Source: a virus
Taxonomy: Duplodnaviria; Heunggongvirae; Uroviricota; Caudoviricetes
Virus record (IMG/VR): IMGVR_UViG_2695420514_000017
Span: 1 to 21,434 of that record
Length of the DNA stretch: 21,434 nt
Strand: one strand, 5' to 3'
Under the pieces are notes generated by a model. It was not told where the DNA came from. It did no database searches and saw nothing but the letters and a program-made list of their open reading frames with translations. Position numbers and translations under genes: made by a program. Shown in pieces: positions 4,342 through 14,670 of this stretch. Numbering within the stretch: the stretch's first letter is position 1; each line of letters starts with the position of its first letter.

Positions 4342-5220
4342 TCAGTAGTTATGTACTGAAGGAGGTAATTCTTTATTCTTAAGTCTCATCCATGCGGAAA
4401 GATTCGTTGGTCCGTCTGGCTCATTGATATCAACATCTCGTGTGTGATTGATTAAAACGTCCCTCGCCATTCCGATAACATACGAGAACTCATGACCGTA
4501 GTCGTAGCATCTGCCGGAATAGTTCGATTGAATTTGTTTTAATGCCGGATACAGTTCGCGGAATAATGCCTGTGAGCGATTGGCATAATCCCATAACCAT
4601 ACAAGGCTGTTTGCTTCTTTTGCAGAAAGCTCGTTGACTTTCCTCTCTTGTTTGCCGATAAACTCGCCTTCAAGCACTACCCTGTGGATGTACTCTACGG
4701 CCAGCGGGATTTGTTCAATTGAAAGTTCATCAATGCTGTCAATACCAAAACGCTGATGAACCATATTGTATGCATCGTCATAGCGAAGTCCTTTCTTTCC
4801 TACCAGCATGTTTACTGCATCGCGTAGCGGTGTTCTTTCCTCAACAGTGGTTTTCTTGCCTTTCACATACTCTCCATGTTTGCGAATCGAAGGCAGAACT
4901 TCTGCTGTTACCCACTTGCGGAATTTGTGCGGGACTGAACCTTTATTGACAGCATCGCGGCAGCGCAGAACCAATGTATACATACCTGATTCGCTAACAA
5001 TGCTTAGATTCTGCTCACCACCAAGGGTGTAACTTAAAGTTACTCCCTTTTCATCGTCATCAAGTGCAGTAAGCGCCTTGCGTGAGTTAGTCAAAGATAA
5101 AGCATCACAAACATCTTTAGCTACAAACCACGGCTCACCGCACTTGTTGATGACGCGGATTTCACTGTCGCCGAATTTGAAGATGGTGAAATCGTTTTGT
5201 GCCTTTGCTATACTTTTCAT
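4342..5220 (-). CDS. ant: Antirepressor Ant (Bro-N domain protein)
   Basis: 292 aa. N-terminal Bro-N-like motif ([28 protein letters not shown]...RLDDDEKG...[17 protein letters not shown]) resembles P22 Ant as recalled. Position directly downstream of arc matches immI. Confidence 0.85.
5186..5214 (+). promoter_or_regulatory. Candidate Psar: extended -10 promoter inside the 5' end of ant, reading antisense
   Basis: TGcTATACT at 5206-5214 fits the extended -10 pattern (TGnTATAAT). Weak -35-like GTGAAA at 5186-5191 with a 17 bp spacer. Predicted start near 5221-5223, just past the ant start codon on the opposite strand. Confidence 0.4.
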
Positions 5221-5292
5221 GTCAATATTTCCTAATCCGATTTGTTGATAACGAAGCCCTGACTGTTACCGCAGTTGGGGCTTCAACTTTTT
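5221..5292 (+). ncRNA. sar: Candidate sar-like antisense RNA complementary to the ant ribosome-binding region
   Basis: Plus-strand hairpin at 5253-5284 (GAAGCCC...GGGCTTC outer stem with an inner GACTG/CAGTT extension) followed by aac-TTTTT (5288-5292) is an intrinsic terminator on the strand opposite arc-ant. With the extended -10 at 5206-5214 this predicts a roughly 70 nt RNA covering the complement of the ant RBS and start codon, as described for P22 sar (68-69 nt). Confidence 0.45.
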
Positions 5293-5456
5293 GCTAGATT
5301 ACCTTTAGAACTATCCCGCCTTAAACTATCCACCAACCGCATTACCATCTCGGTATTTATTGAGCGGCCATTTTCTTTCGCTGACTTCTCGATTGCTAAC
5401 TTAACCTCTAATGGGATGCGCAAAGGGTACTTTGGTGCGTCTGACTTGACTATCAT
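5283..5456 (-). CDS. arc: Arc repressor (ribbon-helix-helix)
   Basis: 57 aa from the ATG at 5454-5456 with a GGAGG RBS 4 nt upstream on the minus strand. PKYPLRIPLEVKLAIEKSAKENGRSINTEMVMRLV aligns with P22 Arc (FNLRWPREVLDLVRKVAEENGRSVNSEIYQRV) as recalled. The ORF-track start at 5471 is a TTG extension. Confidence 0.85.
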   Translation of the reverse strand: MIVKSDAPKYPLRIPLEVKLAIEKSAKENGRSINTEMVMRLVDSLRRDSSKGNLAKS

Positions 5457-5474
5457 ATTACCTCCAATCAATTT

Positions 5475-5491
5475 GGTATAACCGTTATACC
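5475..5491. promoter_or_regulatory. Perfect 17 bp palindrome; candidate Mnt-type operator over the Pant -10 and start site
   Basis: GGTATAAC-C-GTTATACC is a perfect 8-1-8 inverted repeat. It overlaps the predicted Pant -10 (5484-5489) and transcription start. P22 Omnt is likewise a 17 bp near-symmetric site overlapping the Pant start, from memory. Confidence 0.55.
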
Positions 5492-5512
5492 ATTGTGATC
5501 GCAGTGATGCAA
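5484..5512 (-). promoter_or_regulatory. Candidate Pant (promoter of the arc-ant operon)
   Basis: On the minus strand, TTGCAT (plus 5507-5512), 17 bp spacer, TATAAC (plus 5484-5489). Correctly placed upstream of the arc RBS. Confidence 0.5.
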
Positions 5513-5521
5513 TAGTAATAT
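5493..5521 (+). promoter_or_regulatory. Candidate Pmnt (divergent promoter for mnt)
   Basis: TTGTGA (5493-5498), 17 bp spacer, TAATAT (5516-5521), about 24 bp upstream of the mnt ATG. Its -35 abuts the Pant -35, giving back-to-back divergent promoters as in P22 immI. The region between them (about 5491-5516) is the expected place for an Arc operator, but I could not define one confidently. Confidence 0.4.
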
Positions 5522-5544
5522 CACCAAAATGCTATGGAGGTGGT

Positions 5545-5781
5545 ATGTCACGCGAAGAGCCGCAAATAAATATCAGGATTTCCAAAGAGTTAAAGGCAAA
5601 GGTTAAAGCCAGGGCGCAACATAACAAGCGTTCCATGAATGCTGAAATAATACAGATTATCGAAGATGCTGTTTGTGGTAGATCGCTTAATAGCAATGAA
5701 TTTGCTCAGAAAGAGGCTGACAAATTCAGGGATGCGCTGCTTGAAACACTGAAAACCATGTATGGTAAGGATGCAAAATGA
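5545..5781 (+). CDS. mnt: Mnt repressor (ribbon-helix-helix maintenance repressor)
   Basis: 78 aa. INIRISKELKAKVKARAQHNKRSMNAEIIQIIEDAV aligns with P22 Mnt (FNFRMPMEVREKLKFRAEANGRSMNSELLQIVQDAL) as recalled. GGAGG RBS 4 nt before the ATG. Divergent from arc. Confidence 0.85.
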   Translation: MSREEPQINIRISKELKAKVKARAQHNKRSMNAEIIQIIEDAVCGRSLNSNEFAQKEADKFRDALLETLKTMYGKDAK

Positions 5782-5987
5782 ATAAAAAACAGTTTATTAA
5801 GTCAAAAACGTCAAGCAAGGAAGAGCTAGAGAAAGAGCTAAACTCCCTGAAATACGCTCTGTGTCTGGTTTACTCAAGACTGCCAATGGAAGATAAAAAC
5901 GCTATTTACAATGAAATGATTAGCAGCCTTGATTTTAACGATAGAGACCTTGCATCCCACCTCAACAGCTTCCGCGTCCCTGAGTAA
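5778..5987 (+). CDS. Hypothetical 69 aa protein translationally coupled to mnt
   Basis: The ATG at 5778-5780 overlaps the mnt stop (ATGA). Hydrophilic, predicted helical (KEELEKELNSLKYAL). No family recognised. Confidence 0.55.
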   Translation: MNKKQFIKSKTSSKEELEKELNSLKYALCLVYSRLPMEDKNAIYNEMISSLDFNDRDLASHLNSFRVPE

Positions 5988-6147
5988 TTCTGTTGCGGAT
6001 TTGCTTCTTGCGGTGGTTTAGGCTGGAGAGCTTGGCTTCTGCTTCCGATATTTGCGCATCTAGATCTTTAAGCTCAAGATCTGAAAGTCGCTGGTCAAGC
6101 AGGGTTTGGTTTAACTCAATGTTGTTCAGGCGTTCTTCTATGGTCAT
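5962..6147 (-). CDS. Hypothetical small coiled-coil protein (61 aa from the second ATG)
   Basis: MTIEERLNNIELNQTLLDQRLSDLELKDLDAQISEAEAKL shows heptad-like periodicity. AGGA lies about 8 nt upstream of the ATG at 6145-6147 on the minus strand. Convergent with, and overlapping by 26 bp, the 3' end of the preceding plus ORF, so it is uncertain. Confidence 0.4.
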   Translation of the reverse strand: MTIEERLNNIELNQTLLDQRLSDLELKDLDAQISEAEAKLSSLNHRKKQIRNRITQGRGSC

Positions 6148-6178
6148 AACTTTCATCCTATAACTATTTGGAATCAAA

Positions 6179-6361
6179 ATGAAAAATATATTAATTGGTT
6201 TCGTTTTTGGTGCAGCCTGCGCCGCCAGCATTAGCGTCATCGCCGCCCAGGTTGTTGGTGGTAACTCATATCTAATGGGCTATGACGTCATGATAAATGG
6301 AGAGGTTGTTTGCTCAGATCCTTATGTATGGACCTCGACAAAAGAAATAGAATGTGACTAA
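6179..6361 (+). CDS. Hypothetical small membrane-anchored or secreted peptide (60 aa) with two Cys in the C-terminal part
   Basis: Hydrophobic N-terminus [26 protein letters not shown] (signal peptide or single TM helix), then a 35 aa tail with two Cys (…[20 protein letters not shown]). Weak RBS (GGAA) but a clear intrinsic terminator immediately after the stop. Confidence 0.5.
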
Positions 6362-6363
6362 TA

Positions 6364-6389
6364 CCAGCCTGATGGCTGGTTAATTTTTT
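6364..6389 (+). terminator. Rho-independent terminator after the 60 aa peptide gene
   Basis: CCAGCC-tgat-GGCTGG hairpin (6364-6379) followed by TTAATTTTTT (6380-6389), 3 bp after the stop codon. Confidence 0.6.
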
Positions 6390-6406
6390 CATTTACCTGG
6401 GCCATA

Positions 6407-6437
6407 TTGACTACTTATAAAATGAGATCAATATTTA
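6407..6437 (+). promoter_or_regulatory. Possible promoter for the YjzC-like gene
   Basis: TTGACT at 6407-6412, with an AT-rich -10-like ATATTT/TATTTA about 18-19 bp downstream (6431-6437). The -10 assignment is weak. Confidence 0.3.
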
Positions 6438-6471
6438 ATCGCCCAATAACGGGTGTATGTTGAGGTATATC

Positions 6472-6651
6472 ATGGCGAAAAAACCAGGTGAAAACACAGG
6501 AAAAAACGGCGGAATATACCAAGAAGTTGGCCCGCGCGGCGGTAAGAAAGACAATTTTGCCACCGTCAAGGACAACGAAAGGCTTCCGCCAACAACAAAG
6601 CCAGGTCATGGCTGGGTATTAGATAAGCGAACTCCAGACAGCAAAAAGTAA
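6472..6651 (+). CDS. YjzC-like small protein (59 aa)
   Basis: MAKKPGENTGKNGGIYQEVGPRGGKKDNFATVKDNERLPPTTKPGHGWV follows the KPG...G.Y.E.G..G......V.....LP.T...G.W pattern I associate with the YjzC-like family. GAGG RBS 6 nt before the ATG at 6472. An upstream in-frame ATG at 6457 has a poorer RBS. Confidence 0.65.
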   Translation: MAKKPGENTGKNGGIYQEVGPRGGKKDNFATVKDNERLPPTTKPGHGWVLDKRTPDSKK

Positions 6652-6657
6652 TAATCA

Positions 6658-6680
6658 AGCCGGGTCACTCCGGCTTTTTG
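6658..6680 (+). terminator. Rho-independent terminator after the YjzC-like gene
   Basis: AGCCGG-gtcact-CCGGCT hairpin (6658-6675) followed by TTTT-G (6676-6680), 7 bp after the stop. The stop codon of the convergent minus-strand HExxH ORF lies inside the hairpin. Confidence 0.65.
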
Positions 6681-7030
6681 ATATGTCGCTCGCAGAACTC
6701 AACAAGCCTGCTCATTAAGTAGCAGTAAGTCTCGTTGGCTCTTCCTGGTTCAACATCAACACCGACCCTTGAGCAGATATCGAATGCCATGTGAGCGCAC
6801 TCATGGGCAATAGTAGATAGTTTGCCATTGAACACACCTATCACATGCAAAACACCATTCTCGCTGCTCATTGTATGAGACGCTCCGTTGGCATCCGAGT
6901 CCTGCACGTCCACGCCAAGTTTTTGATGCAGGCGTTGCCATTCTGGAAAGTCTCTGCAAAACACAATCGTACCGCTCTCAAAGAGCGGTACGAGCATCTT
7001 TGGTACGTTTCCAATGTTAACTTTTTTCAT
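6665..7030 (-). CDS. Hypothetical 121 aa protein with an HExxH motif (possible small zinc metallopeptidase-like or Zn-binding protein)
   Basis: From the ATG at 7028-7030 (AGGA 4 nt upstream on the minus strand): MKKVNIGNVPK...STIAHECAHMAFDICSRVGVDVEPGRANETYCYLMSRLVEF. HECAH with a downstream Glu and nearby Cys suggests metal binding. Sequence looks protein-like, unlike the overlapping N-terminal extension of the plus ORF. The ORF-track start at 7069 is a TTG. Confidence 0.5.
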   Translation of the reverse strand: MKKVNIGNVPKMLVPLFESGTIVFCRDFPEWQRLHQKLGVDVQDSDANGASHTMSSENGVLHVIGVFNGKLSTIAHECAHMAFDICSRVGVDVEPGRANETYCYLMSRLVEFCERHIKKPE

Positions 7031-7060
7031 GGTATCCTGCTCAAAACTAAGGAGGTTGGT

Positions 7061-7450
7061 GTGAAGCAATTTCTTGCTGCTATGTTCTTATTCATATCTT
7101 TTGGGGCTACAGCAGAGTGCTGGGTCGTTGGAGATATGCGCGGAATAAGCTATTCAGAACGCAATAATTTCCATCCGGTAGAAGATGGTTTTAGTGGAAC
7201 ATTCACCATTAAGACAAGCGGTGAAGATGCCAGCATCACATATTCTGGTACAGATGCGGGCGGCATGGCTTACAAAGCATTGTCTAAAAACTCCATCATA
7301 GGAATCGGCGCGAATGGCGAAACTCAACGCGTTATCGACTCATGGGTAATACATCCTACTGGAACAGTTTTAATGTCAAAAACCATTTCCGGTTATGGAA
7401 ATATGGATTCAACCAAAGCTTTTGTTGGAAAAGTAAAAAGAAAATGTTAG
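7061..7450 (+). CDS. Hypothetical secreted (periplasmic) protein, about 129 aa precursor, predicted Sec signal peptide
   Basis: Strong AAGGAGG RBS (7049-7055) 5 nt before an in-frame GTG at 7061. N-terminus MKQFLAAMFLFISFGATA|ECWVV has an n/h/c signal-peptide layout with an A-x-A cleavage site. Mature part is beta-rich (TFTIKTSGEDASITYSGTDAGG...) with Cys at both ends. The 72-codon upstream extension in the ORF track is antisense to the HExxH ORF and not credible. Confidence 0.6.
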   Translation: MKQFLAAMFLFISFGATAECWVVGDMRGISYSERNNFHPVEDGFSGTFTIKTSGEDASITYSGTDAGGMAYKALSKNSIIGIGANGETQRVIDSWVIHPTGTVLMSKTISGYGNMDSTKAFVGKVKRKC

Positions 7451-14208: not shown

Positions 14209-14670
14209 TCACGTACTCGGATCATCTTTCTCGATGTAAAACCGATTCCACGTAAACGCGCTTTTGTTACCACTACCGCGAGGCATGTCATTTCGCCGCT
14301 CAAGTGGTGGTATTTTGGTTAAAGCGATGCAGATTGTCTGATATGCGCTGTCAGCAGCGGTAAGGAGAGCATCTGACGGCTGAATGACGTTATCCATGCA
14401 CACTTGCACAGCGAGTTTCAAAGCGACGCCATCATTTGCCCATGCAGGGATACCTGAATCATCGTCAGGTAACGGCATGATGCCGTTTTCTGTATCAGCA
14501 AACTGATATCCAAGCTCGATACCTTTCGCCTGCCATGCTGCCATCATGTCTTCGAGGTCATTAATGGCATCTTCTATTGCCTGAGGATCGGCATCTGTCA
14601 ACGTGGCATTGGAATACAGCCCGGCTTTTCGTAAAGCCTTAAGAACGAGATCACCCTTCGTTTTCGCCAT
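14209..14670 (-). CDS. Head-to-tail adaptor protein, P22 gp4 homolog
   Basis: 153 aa. MAKTKGDLVLKALRKAGLYSNATLTDADPQAIEDAINDLEDMMAAW aligns with the P22 gp4 N-terminus ([44 protein letters not shown]) as recalled. Confidence 0.9.
   Translation of the reverse strand: MAKTKGDLVLKALRKAGLYSNATLTDADPQAIEDAINDLEDMMAAWQAKGIELGYQFADTENGIMPLPDDDSGIPAWANDGVALKLAVQVCMDNVIQPSDALLTAADSAYQTICIALTKIPPLERRNDMPRGSGNKSAFTWNRFYIEKDDPST

Follow-up and report, generated by a model that had tools for sequence, protein, structure and literature searches.

Gene content of the immI locus

This work concerns the immI locus of a stretch of 21,434 nucleotides (nt), hereafter the window, which makes up positions 1 to 21,434 of the IMG/VR virus record IMGVR_UViG_2695420514_000017, and above all the control region between its divergent arc and mnt genes, where a 19-bp palindrome is proposed to be the operator of the Mnt repressor. 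The window belongs to a P22-like (Lederbergvirus) prophage, and its immI region is 100% identical to that of Escherichia coli A28 (NZ_CP028747). The genes ant, arc and mnt together with the antisense RNA sar constitute a complete immI of the P22 type, the secondary immunity region whose product Ant would inactivate the main repressor of the prophage. Gene order and insertion site are those of P22, namely that mnt and the divergent arc-ant pair with sar sit within the late operon, with the gene 16 homolog on one side and the tailspike gene on the other, as determined by comparing the open reading frames (ORFs) with the records of P22 and of Escherichia phage vB_EcoP_Kapi1 (MT813197; hereafter Kapi1), the nearest sequenced phage. 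The starts of arc and mnt agree with the RefSeq/PGAP annotation in five E. coli genomes. For all comparisons with P22 the curated record BK000583 served as reference, in the coordinates of locus L002 (Table 1), and the wider comparison drew on IMG/VR, phage records and E. coli genomes.

Arc, encoded by the first gene of the Pant transcript, belongs to the Pfam Arc/ribbon-helix-helix (RHH) family and is 40% identical to P22 Arc. Mnt is 35% identical to P22 Mnt over residues 1-75 (BLASTP, E 2e-18) and matches PDB entry 1MNT (E 8.7e-9), P22 Mnt being the only solved relative. The sar RNA spans the arc-ant junction and matches RF00262 with 69.4 bits (gathering score 43; E 8.5e-13), and a terminator-like hairpin at this place was also detected in a terminator/promoter scan. 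The candidate Psar ends 7 nt short of the sar match and is the counterpart of the annotated P22 Psar, the -10 being TATACT in both.

Table 1. Features of the window immI locus and their P22 counterparts
Feature	Window position	Strand	P22 position	Description
ant	4342-5220	-		292 amino acids; Pfam Bro-N (4.9e-20) and P22_AR_C (1.2e-28); position as P22 ant
Psar, candidate	5186-5214	+		GTGAAA, 17-nt spacer, (TG)TATACT; only match in the built-in promoter scan
sar antisense RNA with intrinsic terminator	5222-5288	+		Rfam RF00262, full length; terminator stem 5253-5284
arc	5283-5456	-	ATG at 1746	57 amino acids; ATG at 5456; Shine-Dalgarno GGAGGT at 5465-5460; Pfam Arc 2e-12
arc-mnt spacer	5457-5544			88 bp
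Mnt operator, proposed in the window	5474-5492, centre 5483		1763-1779, centre 1771	Perfect 9-1-9 palindrome TGGTATAAC-C-GTTATACCA; P22 mnt operator AGGTCCACCGTGGACCT
Pant extended -10, predicted	5492 to 5484	-	1786-1791 (-10)	TGG-TATAAC; hexamer 5489 to 5484, TG at 5492-5491
Pmnt -35, predicted	5493-5498	+	1781-1786 (TTGAGA)	TTGTGA; top plus-strand match to the position weight matrix (PWM); TTGT invariant in relatives
Pant -35, predicted	5512 to 5507	-	1809-1814	TTGCAT; 17-nt spacer to TATAAC; from PWM scan and conservation
Conserved block	5507-5526			ATGCAATAGTAATATCACCA; 19/20 positions identical in E. coli and Klebsiella relatives
arc operator	none located		1789-1809
Pmnt -10, predicted	5516-5521	+	1804-1809	TAATAT; 17-nt spacer from -35; TA-TAT kept in all relatives
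mnt Shine-Dalgarno	5536-5543	+		GGAGGTGG; read from sequence; kept in relatives
mnt	5545-5781	+		78 amino acids; ATG at 5545; N-terminus SREEPQINIRIS; Pfam Arc/RHH 6.8e-13
orf69	5778-5987	+		Overlaps the mnt stop codon (ATGA); from the ORF list

The palindrome and its covariation with Mnt

The preliminary description of this DNA, made from the sequence alone, had pointed out an 8-1-8 palindrome, GGTATAACCGTTATACC, at 5475-5491, and both its sequence and its coordinates are correct; the perfect dyad is however one pair longer on each side. It is the sole palindrome with arms of at least 9 (gap 0-1) in the 21.4-kb window, where first-order Markov random sequences predict 0.23 such palindromes per window and approximately 0.001 per 88 bp, and the 17-mer has no second match at up to 3 mismatches in the window (0.02 expected). 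In an alignment of ten diverged spacers from relatives of the E. coli, Klebsiella and Cronobacter groups, the GTATAAC-N-GTTAT core is invariant and keeps a fixed spacing to the promoter hexamers, and a 15-bp core is invariant in 8/10, while the stretches 5499-5506 and 5527-5533 vary freely. The palindrome can fold as single-stranded DNA (-5.6 kcal/mol, z = -2.6), which would suit a chance or structural feature, such as a hairpin or a recombination scar with no repressor-binding role. However, this explanation is hardly credible in view of the chance expectation, of the preservation of the palindrome across E. coli, Klebsiella and Cronobacter phages with diverging flanks, and of its strict tie to one class of Mnt; neither strand carries a T-run after the palindrome, so it is not a terminator.

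The position of the dyad is that of the P22 mnt operator. The P22 Mnt repressor, its 17-bp operator and the promoters Pant and Pmnt were reportedly defined in the work of Sauer and colleagues in 1983 and of Vershon and colleagues in 1987. The first T of the Pmnt -35 is exactly 10 bp away from the dyad centre in both the window and P22, the -35 beginning one nucleotide past the 17-bp operator, and from the dyad centre to the arc ATG there are 27 bp in the window and 25 bp in P22. Because of the same 10-bp spacing, the window palindrome is a positional homolog of the P22 mnt operator defined by experiment, in keeping with the earlier suggestion that it has the geometry of a 17-bp Mnt-type operator. 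The likeness extends to a perfect dyad of 17-19 bp with a central AC-N-GT, to divergent and overlapping promoters with 17-nt spacers, and to an RHH Mnt with a probably helical C-terminal domain. The sequences themselves differ: the window half-site GGTATAAC and the P22 half-site AGGTCCAC are identical at 3/8 positions, and the operators at 7/17, mainly in the central ACCGT. With an Mnt N-terminus of SREEPQINIR, the window does not belong to the P22 immI specificity class, which is characterized by the operator AGGTCCAC-N-GTGGACCT and the Mnt N-terminus ARDDPHFNFR.

Loci with Mnt relatives were collected by tblastn on phage records and by two protein-based scans of IMG/VR, giving approximately 130 loci, from each of which the Mnt N-terminus and the upstream 100-140 bp were taken, with about 50 distinct upstream sequences in total; a scan of the genome collection with the Mnt protein yielded only two irrelevant loci (Chryseobacterium and Chloroflexota). 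The upstream dyads follow the Mnt N-terminus (Table 2), and among the approximately 50 distinct upstream sequences no locus mixes the classes. Within the four classes, the only loci without the class dyad are those with an obvious deletion, rearrangement or degenerate site. In the reverse direction, an IMG/VR search with TATAACSGTTATACCATTG returned 21 contigs, all of them already recovered through the Mnt protein, and the window operator was found only beside SREEPQINIR-type mnt genes in these contigs. Despite the differing operators, all four classes (P22, ST64T, L056 and the window) have 10 bp between the dyad centre and the Pmnt -35 TTG, and this fixed spacing may reflect a functional coupling of bound Mnt with RNA polymerase at Pmnt. 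At position 5 from the dyad centre, His6 of Mnt goes with T and Gln6 with A, the window class included, and the altered-specificity genetics of His6 by Youderian, Knight and Sauer is said to point the same way. These comparisons support the earlier proposal that the non-P22 operator sequence would mark a distinct immI specificity, since the operator tracks the Mnt N-terminus.

Table 2. Operators found beside the four classes of Mnt N-terminus
Mnt N-terminus	Representatives	Distinct upstream sequences	Operator
A-R-D/N-D-P-H-F-N-F-R	P22, UPF_BP1	17	(A/G)GGTCCAC-N-GTGGACCT
G/T-R-D/E-D-P-Q-F-N-L-R	L, ST64T, ST160	22	AGACCAC-N-GTGGTCT
S-R-E-Y-P-Q-F-K-L-R	L056-L059		AAACCAC-C-GTGGTT
S-R-E-E-P-Q-I-N-I-R	Window, ST899-OXA48phi17.1, ES2	13	(G/A)(G/A)TATAAC-(C/G)-GTTATACC

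Two comparisons bear on whether the dyad belongs to Mnt or to Arc. First, the mnt-only 'ant morons' of L, ST64T and ST104 carry a perfect dyad at 10 bp upstream of the Pmnt -35 as the window does, in this case the perfect 9-1-9 dyad AAGACCAC-G-GTGGTCTT, which shares with the window operator the A at position 5 from the dyad centre; in contrast to the window, which has all three, the L/ST64T loci lack arc, ant and sar. Their mnt has been suggested to be a remnant or to have another function (Villafane et al., 2008, PMC2629481; Zaworski et al., 2020, PMC8022706). Second, in Klebsiella phage ST899-OXA48phi17.1 and Cronobacter phage ES2, whose genes bear no annotation beyond 'Arc family' or 'regulatory protein', Mnt is 81% and 60% identical to that of the window and has the same N-terminus SREEPQINIR, and the dyad and the promoter hexamers are as in the window, while their Arc has Asn11 in place of Pro11. 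Therefore, the dyad tracks Mnt and not Arc, because the L/ST64T class keeps a perfect dyad without arc and ant (including the loci of PMC8022706), and because the Mnt beta-strand and the dyad of the window class do not differ between members with Pro and members with Asn at Arc position 11.

Instead, the palindrome might serve Arc as its operator, or serve Arc and Mnt jointly, with Arc autoregulating Pant over its -10 and Mnt acting elsewhere. Arc is also an RHH protein, no separate conserved Arc dyad was found in the spacer, and the overlap of the dyad with the predicted Pant -10 would suit Arc autoregulation; moreover, in the L056-L059 class a near-palindrome, CTATCACCGTTATAG, at the Arc-operator position shares ACCGTTATA with the window dyad. 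We nevertheless regard this alternative as unlikely, for the dyad coincides in position precisely with the annotated Mnt operator of P22 and not with the Arc operator, dyads at the same position persist in mnt-only loci without arc, and the dyad remains constant across Arc Pro11 and Asn11 and changes class together with the Mnt N-terminus. In addition, the Arc operator of P22 has 21 bp and is a weak pseudo-dyad, not a perfect palindrome of 17-19 bp.

Based on these comparisons, we propose that the prophage's own Mnt has its operator in the 19-bp palindrome at 5474-5492, within a complete P22-type immI switch, a reading to which we would give a probability of about 80%. Several observations weigh against it. 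The predicted Pant, whose -10 the dyad covers, is weak by consensus, it ends its -10 with C, where the final T of sigma-70 -10 hexamers is nearly invariant, and it has no positional homology to P22 Pant. Pfam PF11423, the 28-residue model of the Mnt C-terminus, is not matched by the window Mnt even at E<=1, whereas P22 Mnt matches it with 1.6e-20. The Mnt proteins of the window and of L/ST64T share Arg2, Gln6, Asn8 and Arg10, and yet their half-sites (GGTATAAC vs AAGACCAC) differ at 5/8 positions. Furthermore, the covariation comprises only 4-5 independent classes, and single-base variants occur within the dyad in some E. coli prophages.

These variants are found in 3/5 sampled near-identical spacers, as a difference within the 19-bp dyad. 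A5489G, in strain K71-77 and in L020 and L026, disrupts the dyad and turns the Pant -10 TATAAC into CATAAC; T5479C occurs in strain UTME-12 and G5475A in strain GPEC349-628. They could be natural operator or promoter variants. Elsewhere in the window, in its virion-gene part, a second perfect 8-1-8 palindrome, AACGGCATGATGCCGTT, lies at 14471-14487; approximately 0.8 such palindromes are expected per window by chance, and it is probably not significant.

Related loci show further arrangements. In a Cronobacter group (ES2, L004 1475-1491; L037, L039, L040, L041 and L038) there is a second operator-like site, AGTATTAC-G-GTTACACC, which agrees at 14/17 positions with the main palindrome in reverse complement and overlaps the Pmnt -10 and start, suggesting direct autorepression by Mnt in this subgroup; in L038 the second site is partly kept, and arc, ant and the main dyad are gone. 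The window has no second operator-like site of the ES2 type. The C-terminal domain of the window Mnt, FAQKEADKFRDALLETLKTMYGKD (5677-5778), is nearly identical in the PhiR12-, phiv205-1- and 611R6-type regulators (L005, L006 and L007), whose N-terminal RHH sequence is unrelated and whose control region is a different one, containing four CTACACNGTG-like repeats and one additional small gene, indicating domain-level mosaicism between immI classes.

Promoters, the Arc operator and Mnt specificity

The candidate promoters Pant and Pmnt lie where the preliminary description had placed them, and each is the best-scoring sigma-70 candidate on its own strand in a scan of 5440-5560 with a hand-made PWM, which also ranks the annotated P22 promoters top. 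The window Pant and Pmnt score 8.0 and 10.5 bits, and those of P22 16.7 and 14.3 bits, so that by consensus the window Pant is much weaker than P22 Pant. A stricter built-in promoter scan reported neither Pant nor Pmnt of the window, because its thresholds require at least 9/12 matches and a T at -10 position 6. Conservation points to the same hexamers: in the 10 diverged sequences, TGCAA of the Pant -35 is invariant and always separated from TATAAC by 17 nt, TTGCA(T/C) and TGGTATAAC are kept at exactly this spacing in all ten relatives, and the extended -10 of Pant, which falls within the right arm of the palindrome, is kept as well. Relative to P22 Pant, the predicted Pant is displaced by 14 bp toward arc, and the operator would cover its -10 and +1, compared with roughly +1 to +17 in P22. 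The earlier statement that the palindrome covers the Pant -10 and start thus holds for the predicted Pant, but it does not hold as a match to P22, where the operator lies downstream of the Pant -10.

Alternatively, the palindrome could be the Mnt operator and the promoters could lie elsewhere, for instance Pant at the P22-homologous position, with its -35 at 5526 to 5521 and its -10 at 5503 to 5498, and the operator downstream of the start. A Pant relocated in this way would keep the P22 architecture, and the Pant hexamers predicted here are indeed imperfect, the -10 being non-consensus with a final C and the -35 having only TTG. The P22-homologous hexamers, TGGTGA-17-TGCGAT, are poorer, however: TGCGAT has no A at -10 position 2 and lies where the spacer is least conserved, and the pair is outside the top four minus-strand candidates of the PWM scan. 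Together with the constant 17-nt spacing of TTGCA(T/C) and TGGTATAAC described above, this makes displaced promoters improbable, and a Pant at the P22-homologous position was rejected for its poor hexamers in a variable block.

An indirect indication for Pmnt comes from Kapi1, whose Mnt is 98.7% identical to that of the window, whose ant, sar and orf69 are the same, and whose virion genes are approximately 96% identical over 58% of the window. By alignment, Kapi1 (L001, about 2745) and one IMG/VR contig (L028) lack window positions 5446-5510, a 65-bp deletion that removes the first four arc codons, the arc ribosome-binding site and the operator, and also takes the Pant -10, most of the Pant -35 and the Pmnt -35. 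The Kapi1 control region is therefore derived by deletion from that of the window. In the complete E. coli genomes with the region, this deletion is confined to that of MP1, the Kapi1 host. A transcriptome study of 2026 reported that Kapi1 mnt was surprisingly not expressed in lysogens and ascribed this to unspecified differences from P22 (PMC12922286). The 65-bp deletion probably explains the absence of mnt transcripts, and the loss of the Pmnt -35 together with the reported silence of mnt gives indirect support for the predicted position of Pmnt. The ant gene of Kapi1 is no longer under immI control.

For Arc, a P22-like operator sequence is not recognizable in the window. In a scan for conserved 21-bp symmetry across the ten relatives, only the Mnt-type dyad emerged, with a mean of 8.4/10 symmetric pairs; the next centres (5519.5, 5498.5 and 5514) score 5.3-5.7/10 and are inseparable from background, because the P22 Arc operator itself scores only 6/10. 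The block at 5507-5526 draws attention, since the promoter hexamers account for only 12/20 of its positions and the neighboring 5499-5506 varies, and it shares ATAGTA with the left half of the P22 arc operator. Our best guess is that this block is the zone with the Arc operator. The preliminary description had looked for the Arc site among GTGAT direct repeats (5495 and 5504) and a CATTG/CAATA inverted repeat; these repeats are present, but as an Arc site they are not conserved in relatives, where the copy at 5495 becomes GTAAT, GTGGT, GTGGG, GTGAG or GTGAC and that at 5504 becomes GTAGT, CTGGT or GTAAT, and they were rejected as candidates.

The window Arc has Lys9 and Pro11, where P22 Arc has Gln9 and Asn11. 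Lys9 and Pro11 (PKYPLRIP; codon 11 at 5424-5426 of the window) are shared by the Arc proteins of the E. coli group, and the Klebsiella and Cronobacter relatives have Asn11 as P22 does, a residue which we take to contact bases from the middle of the beta-ribbon. Pro11 is also kept in relatives that have diverged elsewhere (L032 and L036), and for this reason a sequencing error or a recent defect seems an unlikely origin.

As to the Mnt protein, the single-sequence AlphaFold2 model has a helix at 52-73 with low confidence (predicted local distance difference test score 61), and a profile-profile comparison of the Mnt C-terminal regions (hhalign) gave a probability of 89.6% and E 1.9e-6 over 30 columns; the window Mnt likely forms a tetramer. 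Compared with P22 Mnt, the window Mnt has Gln for His6 and Ile for Phe7 and Phe9, and NKRS replaces NGRS in the helix A-B loop. A comparison of the DNA-contact residues with those of P22 had been proposed earlier as a check, and we carried it out for residues 2, 6, 8 and 10 (Arg2, His6, Asn8 and Arg10), which from the work of Knight and Sauer we take to be the base contacts. Only the exchange of His6 for Gln differs, and residue 6 alone fails to explain the specificity, because Gln6 is also present in the L/ST64T Mnt, whose operator differs again. Residues elsewhere must contribute, be it Ser1, Glu3, Glu4, Ile7 and Ile9 of the N-terminal region or the Lys that replaces the Gly of the NGRS loop. 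It is conceivable, though we consider it rather doubtful, that the specificity is set by non-contact residues, with the operator re-positioned over the -10 of a relocated Pant. Candidates for such specificity residues are Ile7 and Ile9 in the sheet core, Glu3 and Glu4, and the Lys at the place of the conserved Gly of the helix A-B loop. If this were true, the four or five natural operator classes would form a natural series toward an RHH recognition code.

The proposed switch, its distribution and its meaning

With the palindrome as the Mnt operator, the immI switch of the window could work as follows. In a lysogen, Mnt would be made from Pmnt (5493-5521) and would bind to the dyad, probably as a tetramer with one RHH dimer per half-site. 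As the dyad is predicted to cover the extended -10 and the start of the leftward Pant (5512-5484), bound Mnt would exclude RNA polymerase and keep arc and ant silent, and, because Pant and Pmnt overlap, the shut-off of Pant should favor Pmnt. After infection, before Mnt has built up, Pant would fire; Arc would then shut Pant down, and the sar RNA (5222-5288) would limit the translation of ant. With a half-site identical at only 3/8 positions and an Mnt of 35% identity, the element is expected to be heteroimmune to P22 at immI.

Downstream of mnt, orf69 matched no Pfam family, its Kapi1 homolog is annotated as Kapi1_062, and it is probably co-transcribed with mnt. Between orf69 and the gene 16 homolog (5962-7450) there are small ORFs without a confident Pfam family, namely of 92 amino acids (minus strand, weakly XhlA-like), 60 amino acids, 64 amino acids (weakly YjzC-like), 134 amino acids (minus strand) and 201 amino acids. 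Part of this stretch is absent from Kapi1, and the ORFs probably represent accessory cargo of the variable 'ant moron'.

With an identity of no less than 99%, 43 of 5426 complete E. coli genomes (approximately 0.8%) carry the intact control region, their annotation of the genes going no further than 'Arc family DNA-binding protein', and the operator/Mnt class of the window occurs also in Klebsiella and Cronobacter phages. The 'ant moron' is known to be highly variable, with 'ten types in sixteen genomes', of which only the P22 version has been studied (PMC2629481). We found no description of the operator classes, nor of the window class, in the searchable literature.

In conclusion, judged from its operator and Mnt sequences, the window immI is a distinct and previously undescribed specificity class of a well-understood switch and not a new mechanism, and the accepted view of how immI works is unchanged by these results. 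immI decides whether a superinfecting or resident P22-like phage expresses the antirepressor that inactivates prophage repressors, and the operator/Mnt class thereby sets the mutual immunity of phages at a second level. The clean covariation of the operator with the Mnt N-terminus, together with the fixed 10-bp spacing, constitutes a natural data set on the DNA specificity of RHH proteins.

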